A stretch of 64,000 bases of DNA from Burkholderiales bacterium (GCA_019509985.1 JAEKLF010000037.1:8127-72126); one strand, 5' to 3'; shown: positions 2,250-55,014, numbered from the stretch's first letter. Numbers and translations: made by a program. Notes: a model not told the origin generated them from the sequence alone.

Positions 2250-5075
2250 TCAGGGCTTGGGCTGGCCGTCGGGGTCGCGCACCTCCACCTTGCGGCCAAT
2301 GGCTTCCAGCTGCGGCTGCACCTTGGCCTTGTCGCCCACAGCCACGACGATCAACTGCGCCGGGTCCAGGTGCTGCTGCGCCGCCTTCAGCGCGGTGGCC
2401 GACGTGACGGCGCCGTACTTCTTCGGCAGGTCGGTGATGGCCGACAGCGGCTGGCCCGAGGCCCAGTTGCCCGCGTAGCCGGCGACGACCGCGAGGTTGG
2501 TGTCGAACAGGCCCGGCAGTGACAGCAGCTGCGCATTGCGCACGCGGCCGAGTTCCGCAGCGCCCATGGGCTTGGCGCGCATGCCTTCGATCTCCTTCCA
2601 CATGTCGACGAGGGCTGCGCCGGTCACGTCCGTGCGCACGCTGCCGCGGATGCCGAACTGGCCGCGCTCGCGGCCCATCGTGTAGCCGGAGTAGATGCCG
2701 TAGGTGTAGCCCTTGACCTCGCGCAGCTGGGTGTTGATGCGCGACGTGAACAGGCCGCCCAGGGCCGCGTTCATGACCTTGATCGAGGCTGCATCCGGCG
2801 TGGACGCGAACGGGCCGGGCGCGACGACCGCCAGGGCCGTCTGCGGCGCGCCGGGCTTGTCGACCAGCACGGTGCGCGCGGCAATCGGCTTGGCCGCCGA
2901 CAGCGGCGCGGCGGGCGCGGCATCGCCGGCGGGCTTCCAGCTGCCGAACAGCGGTTCGACCAATGCCCGCAGCTCGGCTTCGCTGAGGTCACCCGCCACG
3001 ACCAGAGCCGCGCGCTCGGGGCGGTAGTGGCCCTGCCAGAAGGCACGCAGCGCGCTCGCGTCGACGGCCTTGATGCTGGCCTCGGTGCCTAGCGCGTTCT
3101 CGGCCAGCGGATGGCCCTCGCCGTAGGTCACGCGGTTGCCGACGGCATTGGCCAGCAGCGGCGCCTGCTCGCGCGCCTGCGCCAGGGCCGCGAGGCGCTG
3201 GGACTTCTGGCGCTCGATCTCGGGCGTGGCGAAGGCGGGGTTCAGCACCAGGTCGGCCAGCAGCGCGAAGCCGTCCTTGGCGCTGCGCTTGAGGCCGGAG
3301 AAATCGATGCGTGCTTCTTCGCTGCCGGCCTGAGCCGTCAGCGTCGCGCCCAGGGCCGACGTGGCCTCGGCGATCTGCTGCGCGCTGCGCGTCGTCGTGC
3401 CCTCGGGCAGCATGGCGGCAGTGAAGCCGGCGAGGCCCGGCTTGTCCGCCGGGTTGGCGCCCTGGCCGGCGCGCAGCACGAGGCTGGCGCTGACCAGCGG
3501 CAGGCCGGGCTTGGGCGAGTGGATGACGGTCAGCCCGTTGGCCAGCGTGAAGCTCTGCGCGGCCGGCAGCACCAGCGGCTTGGCCTTGGCAGCACCCGGC
3601 GCCTTGTTGCGCCAGGCTTCGGTCGCGTTCAGCGATTCACGCTCACCCTTGGCCGCCTTGGTGGGCGCCGGTGGCGTGGCCACCTCGGGCGCCAGCACCT
3701 GCTCGCCGGGCTTGGCCTGCACGACGACGCGACTGTCCTTCTTCAGCCATTGCGCCACGGTGGCGCTGACGGCGGCCGGCGTCGTTTGCCGATAGCGCGC
3801 CAGGTCCTTGCCGACGAAGCCCGGGTCGCCCGCCATCTGGTTGTAGTGGTTGATGAGGTCGGCCAGCGACGTGACCTTCTCCATGCGCTGCAGCACCTGG
3901 GTCTCGATGGTGGCGCGCGCCTGGGCCAGCTCGGCCTCAGTTGGCGGCTCGGCGGCGAGCCGGGCGACCTCGGCGTCGACCAGCTTCTCGATCTCGTCCA
4001 GCGAGGCGCCCGGGCGGGCGACGACCTCGATGTCGAACACCGAGCTCAGCGACTGCGAGTCCTGCCCCACCTGCACGCTCTGCGCGAGCTGCTTGTCGCG
4101 CACCAGCAGGCCGTAAAGCCGGCTGGCCTTGCCGCCGCCCAGCACGTGGGCAGCCACGTCCAGCTCGGCGTCGCCGGCCGCGAACATCGGCGGCGTGTGC
4201 CAGGCGATGTTGAGGCGGCTCAGCTCGATGCGGTCGGTCACGACGAGGCGGCGCTCCTTCGTGATCTCGGGCATGGCCACCTTCACCTCCGGCACCTTGG
4301 GGCCGGCCTTCAGCGAGCCGAAGTACTTCTGCACCAGCGCCTTGGCCTGCTTGGGATCGAAGTCGCCGGCCAGCACCAGCGTCGCGTTGTTGGGCCGGTA
4401 GTAGGTGCGGGCGAAGTCCTTCACGTCCGCGAGCTTGATGCTCTGGATGTCGGCATGCGAGCCGATGACCGCCGCGCGATAGGGGTGGCCTTCGGGGTAG
4501 AGGGCCTGGTACATCGCTTCCTCGACGATGCCGTAGGGTCGGTTCTCGAAGCTCTGGCGGCGCTCGTTGCGCACGACGTCCTGCTGGTTGGCCAGCGACA
4601 CCGAATCGACCTCGTCGATCATGTAGCCCAGCATGTCGGACTTCAGCCACAGGCCGAGTTCGAGCTGGTTGGACGGCAGCGTGAAGAAGTAGTTGGTGCG
4701 GTCGAAGTTGGTCGAGCCGTTGCTGTCGGTGCCGCCCGCGGCGTCGACGTACTGGTCGAACTTGCCACGCGGCACATGGCGGCTGCCGGCGAACATCAGG
4801 TGCTCGAACAAGTGAGCGAAACCCGTCTGGCCCTTGGCCTCGTTGCGCGGGCCGGCATGCACCCACAGGTTGAAGGCGACGAGCGGCAGGCGGTGATCCT
4901 CGACGAGGATGACCTCGAAGCCATTGGCCAGCGTGACCTTCTCCTGGCGGATGGCGATCTGGCCGGCCTCGGTGCTGACGGCGCCTTGCGGTGCCGCGGC
5001 GACGGGGAAGGTGGCCGAGAGCGCGCCGGCCAGGGCCAGCAGCGCGACGAGACGGCGGGGGGCGGGAGCTTTCAT
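2250..5075 (-). CDS. M16 family zinc peptidase (two fused halves), exported
   Basis: Inverted zinc motif HLFEH, NGSTNFDRTNYF, VVRNERR; second half with LREVKGYTY; N-terminal signal peptide. Confidence 0.9.
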   Translation of the reverse strand: MKAPAPRRLVALLALAGALSATFPVAAAPQGAVSTEAGQIAIRQEKVTLANGFEVILVEDHRLPLVAFNLWVHAGPRNEAKGQTGFAHLFEHLMFAGSRHVPRGKFDQYVDAAGGTDSNGSTNFDRTNYFFTLPSNQLELGLWLKSDMLGYMIDEVDSVSLANQQDVVRNERRQSFENRPYGIVEEAMYQALYPEGHPYRAAVIGSHADIQSIKLADVKDFARTYYRPNNATLVLAGDFDPKQAKALVQKYFGSLKAGPKVPEVKVAMPEITKERRLVVTDRIELSRLNIAWHTPPMFAAGDAELDVAAHVLGGGKASRLYGLLVRDKQLAQSVQVGQDSQSLSSVFDIEVVARPGASLDEIEKLVDAEVARLAAEPPTEAELAQARATIETQVLQRMEKVTSLADLINHYNQMAGDPGFVGKDLARYRQTTPAAVSATVAQWLKKDSRVVVQAKPGEQVLAPEVATPPAPTKAAKGERESLNATEAWRNKAPGAAKAKPLVLPAAQSFTLANGLTVIHSPKPGLPLVSASLVLRAGQGANPADKPGLAGFTAAMLPEGTTTRSAQQIAEATSALGATLTAQAGSEEARIDFSGLKRSAKDGFALLADLVLNPAFATPEIERQKSQRLAALAQAREQAPLLANAVGNRVTYGEGHPLAENALGTEASIKAVDASALRAFWQGHYRPERAALVVAGDLSEAELRALVEPLFGSWKPAGDAAPAAPLSAAKPIAARTVLVDKPGAPQTALAVVAPGPFASTPDAASIKVMNAALGGLFTSRINTQLREVKGYTYGIYSGYTMGRERGQFGIRGSVRTDVTGAALVDMWKEIEGMRAKPMGAAELGRVRNAQLLSLPGLFDTNLAVVAGYAGNWASGQPLSAITDLPKKYGAVTSATALKAAQQHLDPAQLIVVAVGDKAKVQPQLEAIGRKVEVRDPDGQPKP

Positions 5076-5145
5076 TCGGATTGGTCCTTCAAGGGCAATG
5101 CAGGGATTGGGCGACGCCGGCAGCGTCGCATAGAAGTGCCGGGAG

Positions 5146-51085: not shown

Positions 51086-51232
51086 CGGCCCTGCCCCATC
51101 TCGGGTGTGCCCACGCACAAGCATCGGCCGGCCCGGTGTGCATGTGCGCTCGGGCGGCCGCCTGTCGCGTGCAGCGACGCATCACTGGCTCGCGCAGGCC
51201 GGTCGCGTCGCGTGTGGACACAGCCGAGATGG
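51086..51232 (+). ncRNA. Candidate structured ncRNA with paired ends
   Basis: CCATCTCGG(g)TGTG pairs with CACA(g)CCGAGATGG; several internal hairpins; no convincing ORF. Confidence 0.4.
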
Positions 51233-51243
51233 ATTTGCCTTTT

Positions 51244-51318
51244 GCCCCGTTGGACTTCCGGTGAGGTCCTCGGCCCTTCAAGCCGAAGAGGCGGGTTCAA
51301 CTCCCGCACGGGGCACCA
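51244..51318 (+). tRNA. tRNA-Glu(TTC)-like, atypical C33
   Basis: GCCCCGT/ACGGGGC acceptor, GAC/GTC D stem, TCGGC-CCTTCAA-GCCGA anticodon arm, 4-nt variable loop, GCGGG-TTCAACT-CCCGC, encoded CCA. Confidence 0.8.
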
Positions 51319-51422
51319 GACCCTTCAACCCGAAGTCCCTCGTTGAGCTCACGCCCCGAGGGACGCAAACCGGCCGCAACGATTGGGCGGCGTCGGAACC
51401 CGTCACCGACAACCTTTCCCGT

Positions 51423-51499
51423 CCGGGCGTAGCTCAGCCAGGTAGAGCATCTGCTTTGGGAGCAGAGGGTCGCACGTTCAACTCGTGTCACCCGGACCA
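51423..51499 (+). tRNA. tRNA-Pro(TGG)
   Basis: TAGCTCAGCCAGGTAGAGC D arm, TCTGC-TTTGGGA-GCAGA, GCACG-TTCAACT-CGTGT, ACCA end; one C:A mismatch in the acceptor stem. Confidence 0.88.
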
Positions 51500-51509
51500 A
51501 CCATTTCAT

Positions 51510-51585
51510 GTCGCCATAGCTCAGCTGGGAGAGCGCCGGTCTGTCGAACCGGAGGTCGCGGGATCGAGGCCCGCTGGCGGCGCCA
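51510..51585 (+). tRNA. tRNA-Asp(GTC), atypical T loop
   Basis: GTCGCCA/TGGCGGC acceptor, CCGGT-CTGTCGA-ACCGG, T loop ATCGAGG instead of TTCRANY, GCCA end. Confidence 0.82.
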
Positions 51586-51692: not shown

Positions 51693-52253
51693 ATGCACGA
51701 CGTTTTGCAGTTGGACATCACCGGCCTTCCGCAGGCCTGGATCTCGGTGGAGGACGCCGCCGGCCTCGTGGCCACCGACTCGGTGGTCTGGTCAGCCGGC
51801 GAGCGGCCACTGGCCGTGCTGCGGGGCGGCTTCAACACCGTTACCGGCCGCCAGTCGATGCTGGAGGTGCCGCCCATCGTGGCCCTGCGCGGCGTGTCGA
51901 GGATAAACCTCTTCGACCTGACGCCGACCTTCAGCAAGCTCAAGGTCATCAAGCGTGACCGTTGCACCTGCGCCTATTGCGGCGACGTGTTCGACCTGCG
52001 TTCACTGACCGTGGACCACATCCAGCCCGACAGCCGCGGTGGGTCCTTAAGCTGGATGAACACGGTCGCGGCCTGCCGCAGCTGCAACATGCTGAAGGCC
52101 GACCGCACGCCGGACGAGGCCCGCATGCCGCTGCTGTTCGCGCCGTTCGTGCCCAGCCGCTTCGAGGACTTCATCCTCAAGGGCCGGCACATCCGCGCGG
52201 ACGTGCACGACTGGCTGGCTGCGCGCCTGCCGAAAGGATCTCGCCTCAGCTGA
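51693..52253 (+). CDS. HNH endonuclease
   Basis: AGGAGG RBS; RDRCTCAYCG...TVDHIQPDSRGG...WMNTVAACRSCNMLKADR. Confidence 0.92.
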   Translation: MHDVLQLDITGLPQAWISVEDAAGLVATDSVVWSAGERPLAVLRGGFNTVTGRQSMLEVPPIVALRGVSRINLFDLTPTFSKLKVIKRDRCTCAYCGDVFDLRSLTVDHIQPDSRGGSLSWMNTVAACRSCNMLKADRTPDEARMPLLFAPFVPSRFEDFILKGRHIRADVHDWLAARLPKGSRLS

Positions 52254-52383: not shown

Positions 52384-52438
52384 CGTGAGGCAAGGTTGAG
52401 CCGCAAGGCATTGGGTTCGATTCCCAACTTCACGACCA
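52384..52438 (+). ncRNA. tRNA-like mini-RNA (acceptor stem + T arm + CCA, no anticodon arm)
   Basis: CGTGAGG/CTTCACG 7-bp stem, A-CCA, TTGGG-TTCGATT-CCCAA, GCC-GCAA-GGC hairpin in place of the D and anticodon arms. Confidence 0.6.
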
Positions 52439-52439
52439 C

Positions 52440-52506
52440 TGGATAGCTCAGTCGGGTAGAGCAACGAACTAGTAGTTCGTCTGTCGCGGGTTCGACTCCC
52501 GCTCCA
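52440..52506 (+). pseudogene. Pseudo-tRNA (anticodon AGT) with broken acceptor stem and no CCA
   Basis: GCTC-AGTCGGGTA-GAGC, ACGAA-CTAGTAG-TTCGT, GCGGG-TTCGACT-CCCGC; only 4 acceptor pairs (TGGA/TCCA). Confidence 0.65.
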
Positions 52507-52772
52507 AAGCTTGGCCTTGAACGCCAATCCAAAACCGGTCGCAAGACCACCCGCCGAACGTGCGCCCCGGCCTTGGCCGGACCCGCGCATCAGCGGCCCG
52601 CGCTCGCGCGCCGGGCAAGCGGGGCTCTGCAACCACGGCCAGCCGAGAGCGTCTTCAGGGAGGAGGCGCTCGACGCGCACCGTGGCGCCAGGCCCTGGCA
52701 TCCGACGTCCGCACGGGTTGCTGTAACGGCACCCTCATCCCCATCACCACGCGTCACCACAAGGAGAACACC

Positions 52773-53909
52773 ATGACGATCAAGCGTGTGGCTGTGAAGA
52801 AGAACGAGCGCGGCATCCTGCTGCGCAATGGCGATTTCGAGCGCGTGCTGCAACCCGGCACGCACTGGCTGTTCGCCGGGCTGGACGAGCTGAAGGTGGA
52901 GCTGTTTGCCATCAGCCAGCCGGCCTTCGTGCACCTGCTGACCGACTACCTGCTGGCCAAGGAGCCCGCAGTCGTCGAGGCGGAGTTCCTGCGCGTCGAG
53001 CTGAACGAACACCAGGCGGGCCTGCGCACCGAGAACGGCGTGCTGGTCGAAGTGCTGCCGCCCGCCACGCGGCGCCTGTACTGGCGCGGCCTGGTGGACG
53101 TGCAGGTCGAGGTGATCGACCTGCGTGCGTCCGTCGAACTGCCCGCGGCCGTGGCCGCACGTCTGGCCCAGCCGCAACTGCGCCCGCGCGCGGTGACCGG
53201 CCTGGCCGGCGTGCTGCAGGTCGAGGTGCCGGAAACCGGCGCCGGCCTTCTGCGCGTGGACGGCAAGGTGGAGCGACTGCTGACCGCGGGTGCTTACGCC
53301 TTCTGGCGGTTCAACCGCAACGTGACGGTGGAGCTGGTGGACCTGCGGCTGCAGGCGCTGGAAGTGACGGGCCAGGAAATCCTGACCCGTGACAAGGTGG
53401 CGCTGCGGCTCAACCTGTCGGCCAACTGGCGCTACACGGACGTGCTGCGCGCGTTCGAGCAGTTGGCCAAGCCGGCCGACCACCTCTACCGCGAGCTGCA
53501 GTTCGGCCTGCGCGCAGCGGTGGGCACGCGCACGCTGGACGAGCTGCTGGAGAACAAGTCGGTCATCGACGAGGTCGTGACCGCCCAAGTGACGTCCAAG
53601 CTGGCCGGCTACGGCCTGCAGTTGGACGGCGTGGGCGTGAAGGACATCGTGCTGCCAGGCGAGATGAAGACCATCCTCGCCCAGGTGGTGGAGGCCGGCA
53701 AGGCTGCCGAAGCCAACGTGATCCGCCGCCGCGAGGAAACCGCGGCGACGCGTTCCCTGCTCAACACGGCCAAGGTGATGGAGGACAACCCCGTCGCCCT
53801 GCGCCTGAAGGAGCTGGAAACGCTGGAACGCGTGGCCGAGCGCATCGACAAGATCTCCGTGTTCGGAGGTCTGGACCAGGTGCTCAACGGGCTGGTGAAG
53901 CTCCGTTGA
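52773..53909 (+). CDS. Slipin (SPFH/band-7) family protein
   Basis: AAGGAG RBS; GQEILTRDKVALRLN, RAAVGTRTLDELL, RRREETAATRSLLNTAKVMEDNP..LRLKELE. Confidence 0.9.
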   Translation: MTIKRVAVKKNERGILLRNGDFERVLQPGTHWLFAGLDELKVELFAISQPAFVHLLTDYLLAKEPAVVEAEFLRVELNEHQAGLRTENGVLVEVLPPATRRLYWRGLVDVQVEVIDLRASVELPAAVAARLAQPQLRPRAVTGLAGVLQVEVPETGAGLLRVDGKVERLLTAGAYAFWRFNRNVTVELVDLRLQALEVTGQEILTRDKVALRLNLSANWRYTDVLRAFEQLAKPADHLYRELQFGLRAAVGTRTLDELLENKSVIDEVVTAQVTSKLAGYGLQLDGVGVKDIVLPGEMKTILAQVVEAGKAAEANVIRRREETAATRSLLNTAKVMEDNPVALRLKELETLERVAERIDKISVFGGLDQVLNGLVKLR

Positions 53910-54750: not shown

Positions 54751-55014
54751 ATGGAACCCCAACACATCCACGAAGACGTCCCCGGCGGCGTGCCACTGAA
54801 GATGTGGACGCAAGGCGTGCCAGTCGAAGACTCGGCCAAGCGCCAGCTGCAGAACGCGGCCCGCCTGCCCATCGTCTTCAAGCACATCGCCGCGATGCCC
54901 GACGTGCACTTCGGCATCGGCGCCACCGTCGGCTCGGTCATCCCCACCGTCAAGGCCATCATCCCGGCTGCGGTCGGTGTGGACATCGGCTGTTCTTCCG
55001 ACATCCACTTGTAA
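54751..55014 (+). pseudogene. rtcB: RtcB RNA ligase, 5' fragment interrupted at the DIGC motif
   Basis: LPIVFKHIAAMPDVHFGIGATVGSVIP...IIPAAVGVDIGC, then unrelated SSDIHL*; no rtcB remainder found in the window. Confidence 0.9.
54979..55008. other. Candidate recombinase core/attachment site (left junction)
   Basis: GTGGACATCGG-CTGTTCTT-CCGACATCCAC: 11-bp imperfect inverted arms (9/11) around an 8-bp spacer, exactly at the rtcB breakpoint. Confidence 0.6.

Follow-up and report, generated by a model that had tools for sequence, protein, structure and literature searches.

A short tRNA array at the head of an HNH/Band-7/rtcB locus

The window analyzed here is a stretch of 64,000 nucleotides from the draft genome of a Burkholderiales bacterium (GCA_019509985.1 JAEKLF010000037.1:8127-72126; 358 contigs, 68.6% G+C), and positions are counted from its first letter. 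We called tRNA genes with ARAGORN and with Infernal against the Rfam tRNA model RF00005 (threshold, 29 bits). Three of the calls concern us here, all on the plus strand: a tRNA-Glu(UUC) gene at 51244..51318 (51.0 bits), a tRNA-Pro(UGG) gene at 51423..51499 (58.6 bits), and a tRNA-Asp(GUC) gene at 51510..51585 (58.9 bits), the last of a form that we refer to as type II. Each of the three folds into a cloverleaf that scores above the RF00005 threshold, and each encodes its own CCA end. The interval between tRNA-Glu and tRNA-Pro holds a three-hairpin RNA of ~76 nt on the same strand, element E (51335..51410), which was delimited with an alignment (A1) and a covariance model (R1).

A second structured domain, U, with a long terminal stem, was placed on the plus strand at approximately 51098..51232 on the basis of its conservation in related loci, where a leader ORF and a terminator are also seen upstream. 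U measures ~150 nt and lies upstream of tRNA-Glu (for example, at 5083-5250 of L041 and 5108-5266 of L034, both on the minus strand). In loci that have no tRNAs it adjoins E directly, just 5' of rtcB, and in large arrays it occupies the gap between tRNA-Gly and tRNA-Thr or tRNA-Glu. No Rfam family matched U, and a search with U and E together, taken from a tRNA-free locus, returned only chance-level Rfam matches.

The HNH endonuclease gene that serves as the marker of this array family lies at 51693..52253 on the plus strand (Pfam HNH/HNH_5, phrog_16726). It is followed on the same strand, at 52437..52510, by a tRNA-like RNA (47.5 bits with Infernal) that ARAGORN reported as Thr-like and defective, with anticodon AGT; it lacks CCA and has a short acceptor stem. 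A small T-arm-like RNA is also present downstream of the tRNAs. The tRNA-like RNA sits just 5' of a gene for an SPFH/Band-7 protein, identified by Pfam PF01145 and by synteny and annotated at 52560..53909 (+), although its true start is probably downstream of 52560. Beyond a gene for a 276-amino-acid protein that has no Pfam or PHROGs match, translation and a PF01139 search of the genome revealed the N-terminal fragment of rtcB at 54751..55014 (+). The same search found the gene in two pieces, the second of which is located ~19 kb further on, past the end of the window, at 82495-83382 of contig C58. This split gene, interrupted by a mobile element, is the only rtcB gene of the genome, and the repair ligase of the operon is probably inactive unless the inserted element excises.

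A CCA-less tRNA-like gene occupies the same slot in L044, L045, L073 to L076, L079, L086, L098, L099, L101, L107, and L117. Its body is nearly constant, with an acceptor stem of 4 to 5 bp, and its “anticodon” varies by genome (AGT, CGT, CAG, GAT, CTG, TGT, CGC, CGG, TTT, and one 8-nt loop). Because a tRNA-like RNA that precedes a Band-7 gene and lies beside rtcB is the arrangement of the Band-7/RtcB repair system, the RNA at 52437-52510 fits the description of the “b7a-tRNA” of that system.

The array tRNAs are intact and distinct from their housekeeping isoacceptors

The initial annotation, made from the window alone, had proposed that the three tRNAs were not housekeeping copies. Comparison with the rest of the genome confirmed this. 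The housekeeping Glu and Asp genes are found on contig C161, in two copies each, and the housekeeping Pro(tgg) gene on contig C262; the array genes share only 59% (Glu), 83% (Pro), and 68% (Asp) identity with these isoacceptors and belong to an accessory tRNA-array/RNA-repair island. On the Rfam tRNA model the housekeeping Glu, Asp, and Pro tRNAs score 55.1, 68.0, and 64.6 bits, respectively, and the array genes score 4 to 9 bits lower. Thus, the three array tRNAs are intact and are distinct from the housekeeping genes.

Several individual bases had also been singled out as anomalous, and the ARAGORN bracket output and the Infernal alignments agreed on every one of them. The array tRNA-Glu carries C33 and an A discriminator (A73), along with A38 and U14; the array tRNA-Pro has a single acceptor mismatch, C6·A67; and the array tRNA-Asp has G37 and a T loop that opens with A54, in addition to A38 and G73. 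Judged by the loop rules of a canonical elongator (U33, purine 37, and T54/A58), the breaches are C33 of Glu and A54 of Asp. Position 37 is a purine in all three tRNAs, G37 being unusual for a bacterial tRNA-Asp. Against the housekeeping copies, the anticodon loop of the array tRNA-Glu differs at positions 33 and 38 and that of tRNA-Asp at positions 37 and 38, and the loop of tRNA-Pro is the same. Elsewhere in the genome, U33 and a purine at 37 are found together in all 51 nonarray ARAGORN calls, a few of which look spurious. Decoding or the tRNA elbow should be weakened by any one of these changes: C33, a base other than A at position 37, or the loss of T54 from the T loop.

The array tRNAs retain most of the determinants by which the Escherichia coli synthetases recognize their substrates: the anticodon, A37, G1-C72, U13·G22, and a four-base variable loop in Glu; G73, GUC, and G10 in Asp; and A73, G72, and G35-G36 in Pro. 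Since these are kept, it is plausible, as far as sequence can indicate, that all three are aminoacylated. In the C33 lineage described below, position 14 of tRNA-Glu is U, and the D arm (51252-51269) is predicted to fold into a hairpin of 7 bp capped by a 4-nt loop. If it folds as predicted, this extended hairpin would be a noncanonical D arm.

The window holds a short copy of a patchily distributed array family

We collected relatives of the HNH protein at ≥60% identity, which gave 53 loci, 52 of them with enough upstream sequence to assess. These close relatives come from Roseateles, Pelomonas, Ideonella, Rubrivivax, Aquabacterium, Rhizobacter, Piscinibacter, Variovorax, and other genera. 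A same-strand array of 1 to 27 tRNAs lies 5' of the HNH gene in 43 of the 52 loci, and Band-7 and rtcB genes lie downstream of HNH in most loci that have enough flanking sequence; among more distant HNH relatives (<56% identity), tRNAs were found nearby in 3 of 27. Because HNH relatives are usually preceded by arrays, the window, with three tRNAs and one tRNA-like gene where homologous loci have up to 27 tRNAs, holds a short copy of an L-array-type island. The genes kept most often in the 26 short arrays (1 to 6 tRNAs) are Glu(UUC) (18 arrays), Arg(ACG) (16), Asp(GUC) (14), His (9), and Pro(UGG) (8), counts that are descriptive and overstate independence, as the loci are related by descent, and that mark the set in the window as the usual residual core.

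The unusual bases are inherited traits of the array tRNA lineages

The bases that break the rules in the window recur across the family, as became apparent when we examined 435 unique tRNA sequences from array loci (again as descriptive counts from related loci). A base other than U at position 33 occurs in 31 of the 435 and is concentrated in Glu(UUC) (10 of 35; nine C and one G), Gly(GCC) (8 of 10), and His (5 of 30). In the array tRNA-Gly(GCC), the base in those 8 of 10 sequences is C33. A pyrimidine at position 37 was found in 33 of the 435 sequences, 28 of which are tRNA-Asp; among 35 unique array tRNA-Asp sequences, 22 have U37, 6 have C37, and 7 have G37, the last being the type present in the window, and A37 does not occur at all. 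T54 is missing from 47 of the 435, including all seven type II Asp sequences together with Met, Ile, and Phe tRNAs. The array Met (initiator-like or elongator), Ile, and Phe tRNAs often lack T54. These patterns in Asp, Gly(GCC), Met, Ile, and Phe were read from array loci L032 to L046 and L072 to L127.

The C33 tRNA-Glu sequences form one lineage of eight, to which the window belongs and in which the extended D-arm hairpin is predicted; the C33 type of the window was also found in eight other loci, and C33 has arisen once more, independently, on a normal Glu body (L086). Within the lineage of the window, the 2:71 pair has changed from C-G to U-A and the remaining differences fall in loops, with the exception of a divergent Glu copy in L073 that has three stem mismatches. 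Differences among the type II Asp sequences are confined to the D and T loops, the variable region, and stem positions compatible with G·U pairing; the anticodon arm and acceptor stem of these tRNAs are almost invariant, and T-loop positions 54 and 58 drift freely.

We then set the window against the related loci of two other genomes, L072, its closest relative, and L078, whose array runs Arg-Glu-E-Pro-Asp-His. tRNA-Glu is 97% and 92% identical, respectively, to its counterparts in these loci, E is 86% and 88% identical, and tRNA-Asp is 95% identical in both, whereas the spacer from tRNA-Asp to the HNH start shows only 49% identity to either. The conservation of Glu, Asp, and E against this background shows that all three are under purifying selection. 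Comparison across genera thus identifies the C33 of tRNA-Glu, and the G37 of tRNA-Asp together with its T loop lacking T54, as inherited traits of these array tRNA lineages that purifying selection maintains, and not as products of local decay. tRNA-Pro is the least constrained gene of the set: it is absent from L072 and 78% identical in L078, and this genome alone has the C·A mismatch.

Element E is a conserved three-hairpin RNA

The sequence between tRNA-Glu and tRNA-Pro had been described in the initial annotation as an acceptor-like stem followed by GCA, left behind by a tRNA whose body had been deleted. The hairpin is indeed present, with eight perfect pairs (51335-51342 with 51357-51364) and then GCA. 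Taken alone it is unremarkable, since 8-bp hairpins number 82 in the window against ~64 in Markov-shuffled sequence; it matters only for its conservation and covariation. When 200 genomes of the family were searched with blastn, the stretch 3' of tRNA-Glu proved to be conserved in its own right, at 85 to 90% identity, and alignment with RNAalifold folding resolved it into three hairpins. The unpublished genome G145 gave only a match to housekeeping tRNA-Pro in this search, and none of our conclusions depends on it. The hairpin first noticed is P1, which is variable in sequence. It is followed by P2 (51373-51377 with 51387-51391), a 5-bp stem with a 9-nt loop, and by P3 (51392/3-51396 with 51406-51409/10), a 4- to 5-bp stem that also has a 9-nt loop. 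The sequences of P2, P3, their loops, and the linkers are nearly invariant.

In an alignment of 60 E sequences, which was fitted to the model and so favors its structure, 95.9% of cells were paired, compared with 33 to 51% when the partners were slid, and double changes occurred in 13 of the 18 pairs; no shuffle reached the observed values. P1 was 98% paired, with four to six pair types per position, in an independent set of 81 metagenome sequences, likewise fitted to the model, in which P2 and P3 were fixed by the search pattern. G·U pairs are frequent, making the fold specific to the sense strand, and this points to structure in an RNA. Readings of E as a DNA palindrome or as a coding stretch are unlikely, given these strand-specific G·U pairs and the lack of a third-position pattern of conservation. 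A possible switch, in which the nucleotides 5' of P2 would pair instead with the 3' side of P3, was also considered; it found no support in covariation, and in three sequences it would require a C·A pair.

No Rfam family, tRNA included, matched E; a search of the hairpin region gave chance-level matches only, and RF00005 returned nothing at E ≤ 10 on positions 51300-51440. All 60 matches in genome loci and all 81 in metagenomes take the three-hairpin form, complete or truncated, and none is a tRNA. We concluded that the deleted-tRNA interpretation is not supported: by these comparisons the hairpin is one stem of a conserved, covarying RNA, and E is not a recently collapsed tRNA, the slot that it fills in the array being the size of a tRNA. 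E may still have an ancient origin in a tRNA. One tRNA-free locus (L034, genome G114) has, at ~5085-5130 on the minus strand, a short hairpin with a CACCA-like tail between U and E, the usual place of tRNA-Glu, and this may be a real remnant of a deleted tRNA. Comparison of E with rRNA and with the rest of the genome gave only short chance matches; an 8-mer that E has in common with the 16S decoding site is no more than chance would produce.

E is retained before rtcB or HNH in loci that have lost their tRNAs

Model R1 located E in 39 of the 53 loci with close HNH relatives, always upstream of the HNH gene and on the same strand. Of 151 genomes of the family, 19 contain E and the array, which amounts to roughly one genome per genus. 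A search of one additional genome from the window's genus, and of ~150 genomes of other families of the order, found neither. A metagenome scan with an exact pattern for the P2-P3 core found it in at least 120 contigs. The same core pattern had no match in viral contigs, which does not favor E and its arrays being carried as phage cargo.

The context of E was examined at 80 metagenome loci. E lies directly 3' of tRNA-Glu in 41 of them, and the gene directly 3' of E is tRNA-Asp in 33, Ala in 8, Cys in 5, and Arg in 4. At loci without any tRNAs, E is found 30 to 170 nt before rtcB or HNH and, in those that were read, right after U. Its role does not depend on whatever lies immediately downstream, and E would be either a self-contained cis element of the transcript or an RNA that is set free and has a protein partner in the system. 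E seems to be a structured RNA motif that has not been described before and one that stays with rtcB after the tRNAs are lost.

Relationship to known systems

The tRNA part of the locus is a reduced member of kinds already described, namely, the L-array and the Band-7/RtcB repair system. L-arrays have linked HNH and rtcB genes, and in Anabaena the array is induced by translational stress and 23 of its 26 tRNAs are charged (PMC8421152). The L-array of PCC 7120 (Santamaria-Gomez et al. 2021, PMC8421152; TrcR regulon, PMC10272220) resembles the present locus in having accessory tRNAs unlike the housekeeping set, a patchy distribution indicative of horizontal spread, a linked HNH gene, and a linked or coregulated rtcB. 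It differs in that only three tRNAs are present here (up to 27 in relatives), in a single operon with Band-7 and rtcB and in a betaproteobacterial host. The reduced copy in the window thus lacks the dense run of many tRNAs that typifies an L-array, and it shares the distinctness and patchiness of the tRNAs and the linkage to HNH and rtcB. The searched text of PMC8421152, as far as it extends, makes no mention of C33, of non-A37 bases, or of an embedded non-tRNA RNA like E.

In the b7a-tRNA/Band-7/RtcB system, RtcB is encoded beside a Band-7 gene that is preceded by a tRNA-like RNA (Burroughs and Aravind 2016, in the summary given in bioRxiv 10.1101/312249). To the extent of that summary, the two systems have in common RtcB (split here), a Band-7 protein (PF01145), and an adjoining tRNA-like RNA, and ours is unlike the summarized system in being joined to an array of true tRNAs, an HNH gene, and the structured RNAs U and E. 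In phage tRNAs, the anticodon loop can be altered at known cleavage sites, and these alterations are predicted to stop anticodon nucleases from cutting (van den Berg et al. 2023, PMC10264068). Of the array tRNAs, Glu and Asp, though not Pro, have loops that depart from the host isoacceptor beside the positions at which cleavage usually occurs. The array is chromosomal and linked to repair genes, and its changes fall at the nearly universal positions 33 and 37. E and U also recall the Y RNAs (YrlA/YrlB) of rsr-rtcB operons, as structured noncoding RNAs between promoter and rtcB, although E, unlike Y RNAs, has no tRNA-like domain. A Y-RNA identity was rejected, as the genome has no Ro/TROVE gene and neither E nor U matches an Rfam Y-RNA family. 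What is new is the clade-wide statistics (the lack of A37 in any array tRNA-Asp and the conserved Glu-E-Asp core) and the definition of E.

A proposed role for the array and the alternatives to it

On balance, we consider it fairly probable that the stretch is the conserved 5' core (tRNA-Glu, E, tRNA-Pro, and tRNA-Asp) of a shortened array of the horizontally spread L-array kind, heading an HNH/b7a-tRNA/Band-7/RtcB RNA-repair operon in Roseateles-like Burkholderiales and supplying stress-induced reserve tRNAs together with the E module. If Anabaena and the phage tRNAs are a guide, the operon would normally be repressed and would be induced by translational or RNA damage. Once induced, it would supply reserve tRNAs that tRNA-cutting toxins attack poorly, because their anticodon loops depart from the housekeeping loops at positions read by anticodon nucleases, and RtcB would meanwhile religate the RNAs that had been cleaved, again by analogy. 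E, whether released by tRNA processing or kept in the 5' untranslated region, would be the self-contained RNA module of the operon, for which a protein-binding cofactor, a processing element, and a read-through element are candidate roles.

A function as nuclease-resistant or stress-only reserve tRNAs, as the initial annotation had suggested, is plausible by the same analogies. [quoted passage not shown] C33 may therefore serve another purpose. In this genome the system as a whole may not be working, since rtcB is interrupted and the array is short.

The main rival to the reserve-tRNA reading is that the array tRNAs do not decode at all and act, like b7a-tRNA and Y RNAs, as decoys that soak up tRNA-targeting nucleases or as cofactors that partner RtcB or Band-7. 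We regard this as rather unlikely overall. It would account well for the near invariance of the anticodon arm and acceptor stem of type II Asp while T-loop positions 54 and 58 drift, and the same operon carries a clearly nondecoding tRNA-like RNA, with its hypervariable anticodon loop, as well as the structured RNAs E and U. C33 and non-A37 bases should, from what is established about tRNA, impair decoding, and these bases, together with the drifting Asp T loop, fit a decoy or cofactor as well as they fit a translating tRNA. The 7-bp acceptor stem, the encoded CCA, and most of the generally known GluRS, AspRS, and ProRS identity elements, present in all three tRNAs, are harder to reconcile with decoys, and although a sponge role has been proposed for the Anabaena array tRNAs, 23 of those 26 are aminoacylated in vivo (PMC8421152). 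A different possibility, raised in the initial annotation, is that of a decaying array, in which the odd bases, the mismatch, and the hairpin would be the mutational debris of a dying island. Some erosion is evident: the window has 3 tRNAs where some relatives have 18 to 27, the Pro mismatch is private and Pro itself is absent or only 78% identical in close relatives, and a mobile element interrupts rtcB. Decay is nevertheless an improbable source of the odd bases, since C33, G37, and A54 are common to orthologues in other genera, the changes lie in loops or, in stems, are compensatory, and Glu, E, and Asp are 86 to 97% conserved against 49% for the flanking spacers. It is least likely of all, to the point of being very hard to credit, that the tRNAs merely add gene dosage or a codon supplement for the host or a mobile element. 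tRNA genes on mobile DNA are often explained in this way, and the anticodon loop of Pro is the housekeeping loop, but the genome has housekeeping genes for all three isoacceptors, Glu(UUC), Asp(GUC), and Pro(UGG), those for Glu and Asp in two copies each, and dosage leaves unexplained both the conserved rule-breaking positions and the linkage to RNA repair.

For E, the competing accounts turn on whether it acts in trans. It might be a cis element alone, serving read-through, antitermination, or processing so that the polymerase can cross a long, structured, untranslated array to reach HNH, Band-7, and rtcB. We view this as possible, though on the doubtful side. Its constant placement toward the 5' end and ahead of the protein genes, with the orientation never changing, its retention directly before rtcB or HNH after loss of the tRNAs, and the near-invariant P2, P3, and loops, which suggest binding by a protein or by polymerase, all speak for such a role. 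Against it, E has no similarity to known antitermination RNAs and no Rfam match, and it lies downstream of the leader terminator and so cannot control that terminator. A bolder suggestion, which we put forward as a tentative and somewhat doubtful one, is that E, probably with U, represents a new class of functional noncoding RNA, the RNA core of a Ro-independent RtcB repair operon (as cofactor, sensor, or read-through element) that is kept after the loss of every tRNA, and that the surrounding tRNAs, with their altered positions 33, 37, and 54, are immune to clade-specific tRNA toxins.

The practical consequence for this genome is modest, as its copy is reduced and its rtcB is interrupted. The purpose of RtcB-linked accessory tRNA arrays is still debated, and breaches of the rules for U33, for a purine or A at position 37, and for T54 that are isoacceptor specific and selected bear on the idea of toxin-proof reserve tRNAs. 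E shows a closer link to rtcB than do the tRNAs and could open a way to the control or the working of the repair operons. One metagenome locus (L161, contig Ga0209674_100024) carries two copies of E, 174 nt apart, at 3263-3521.
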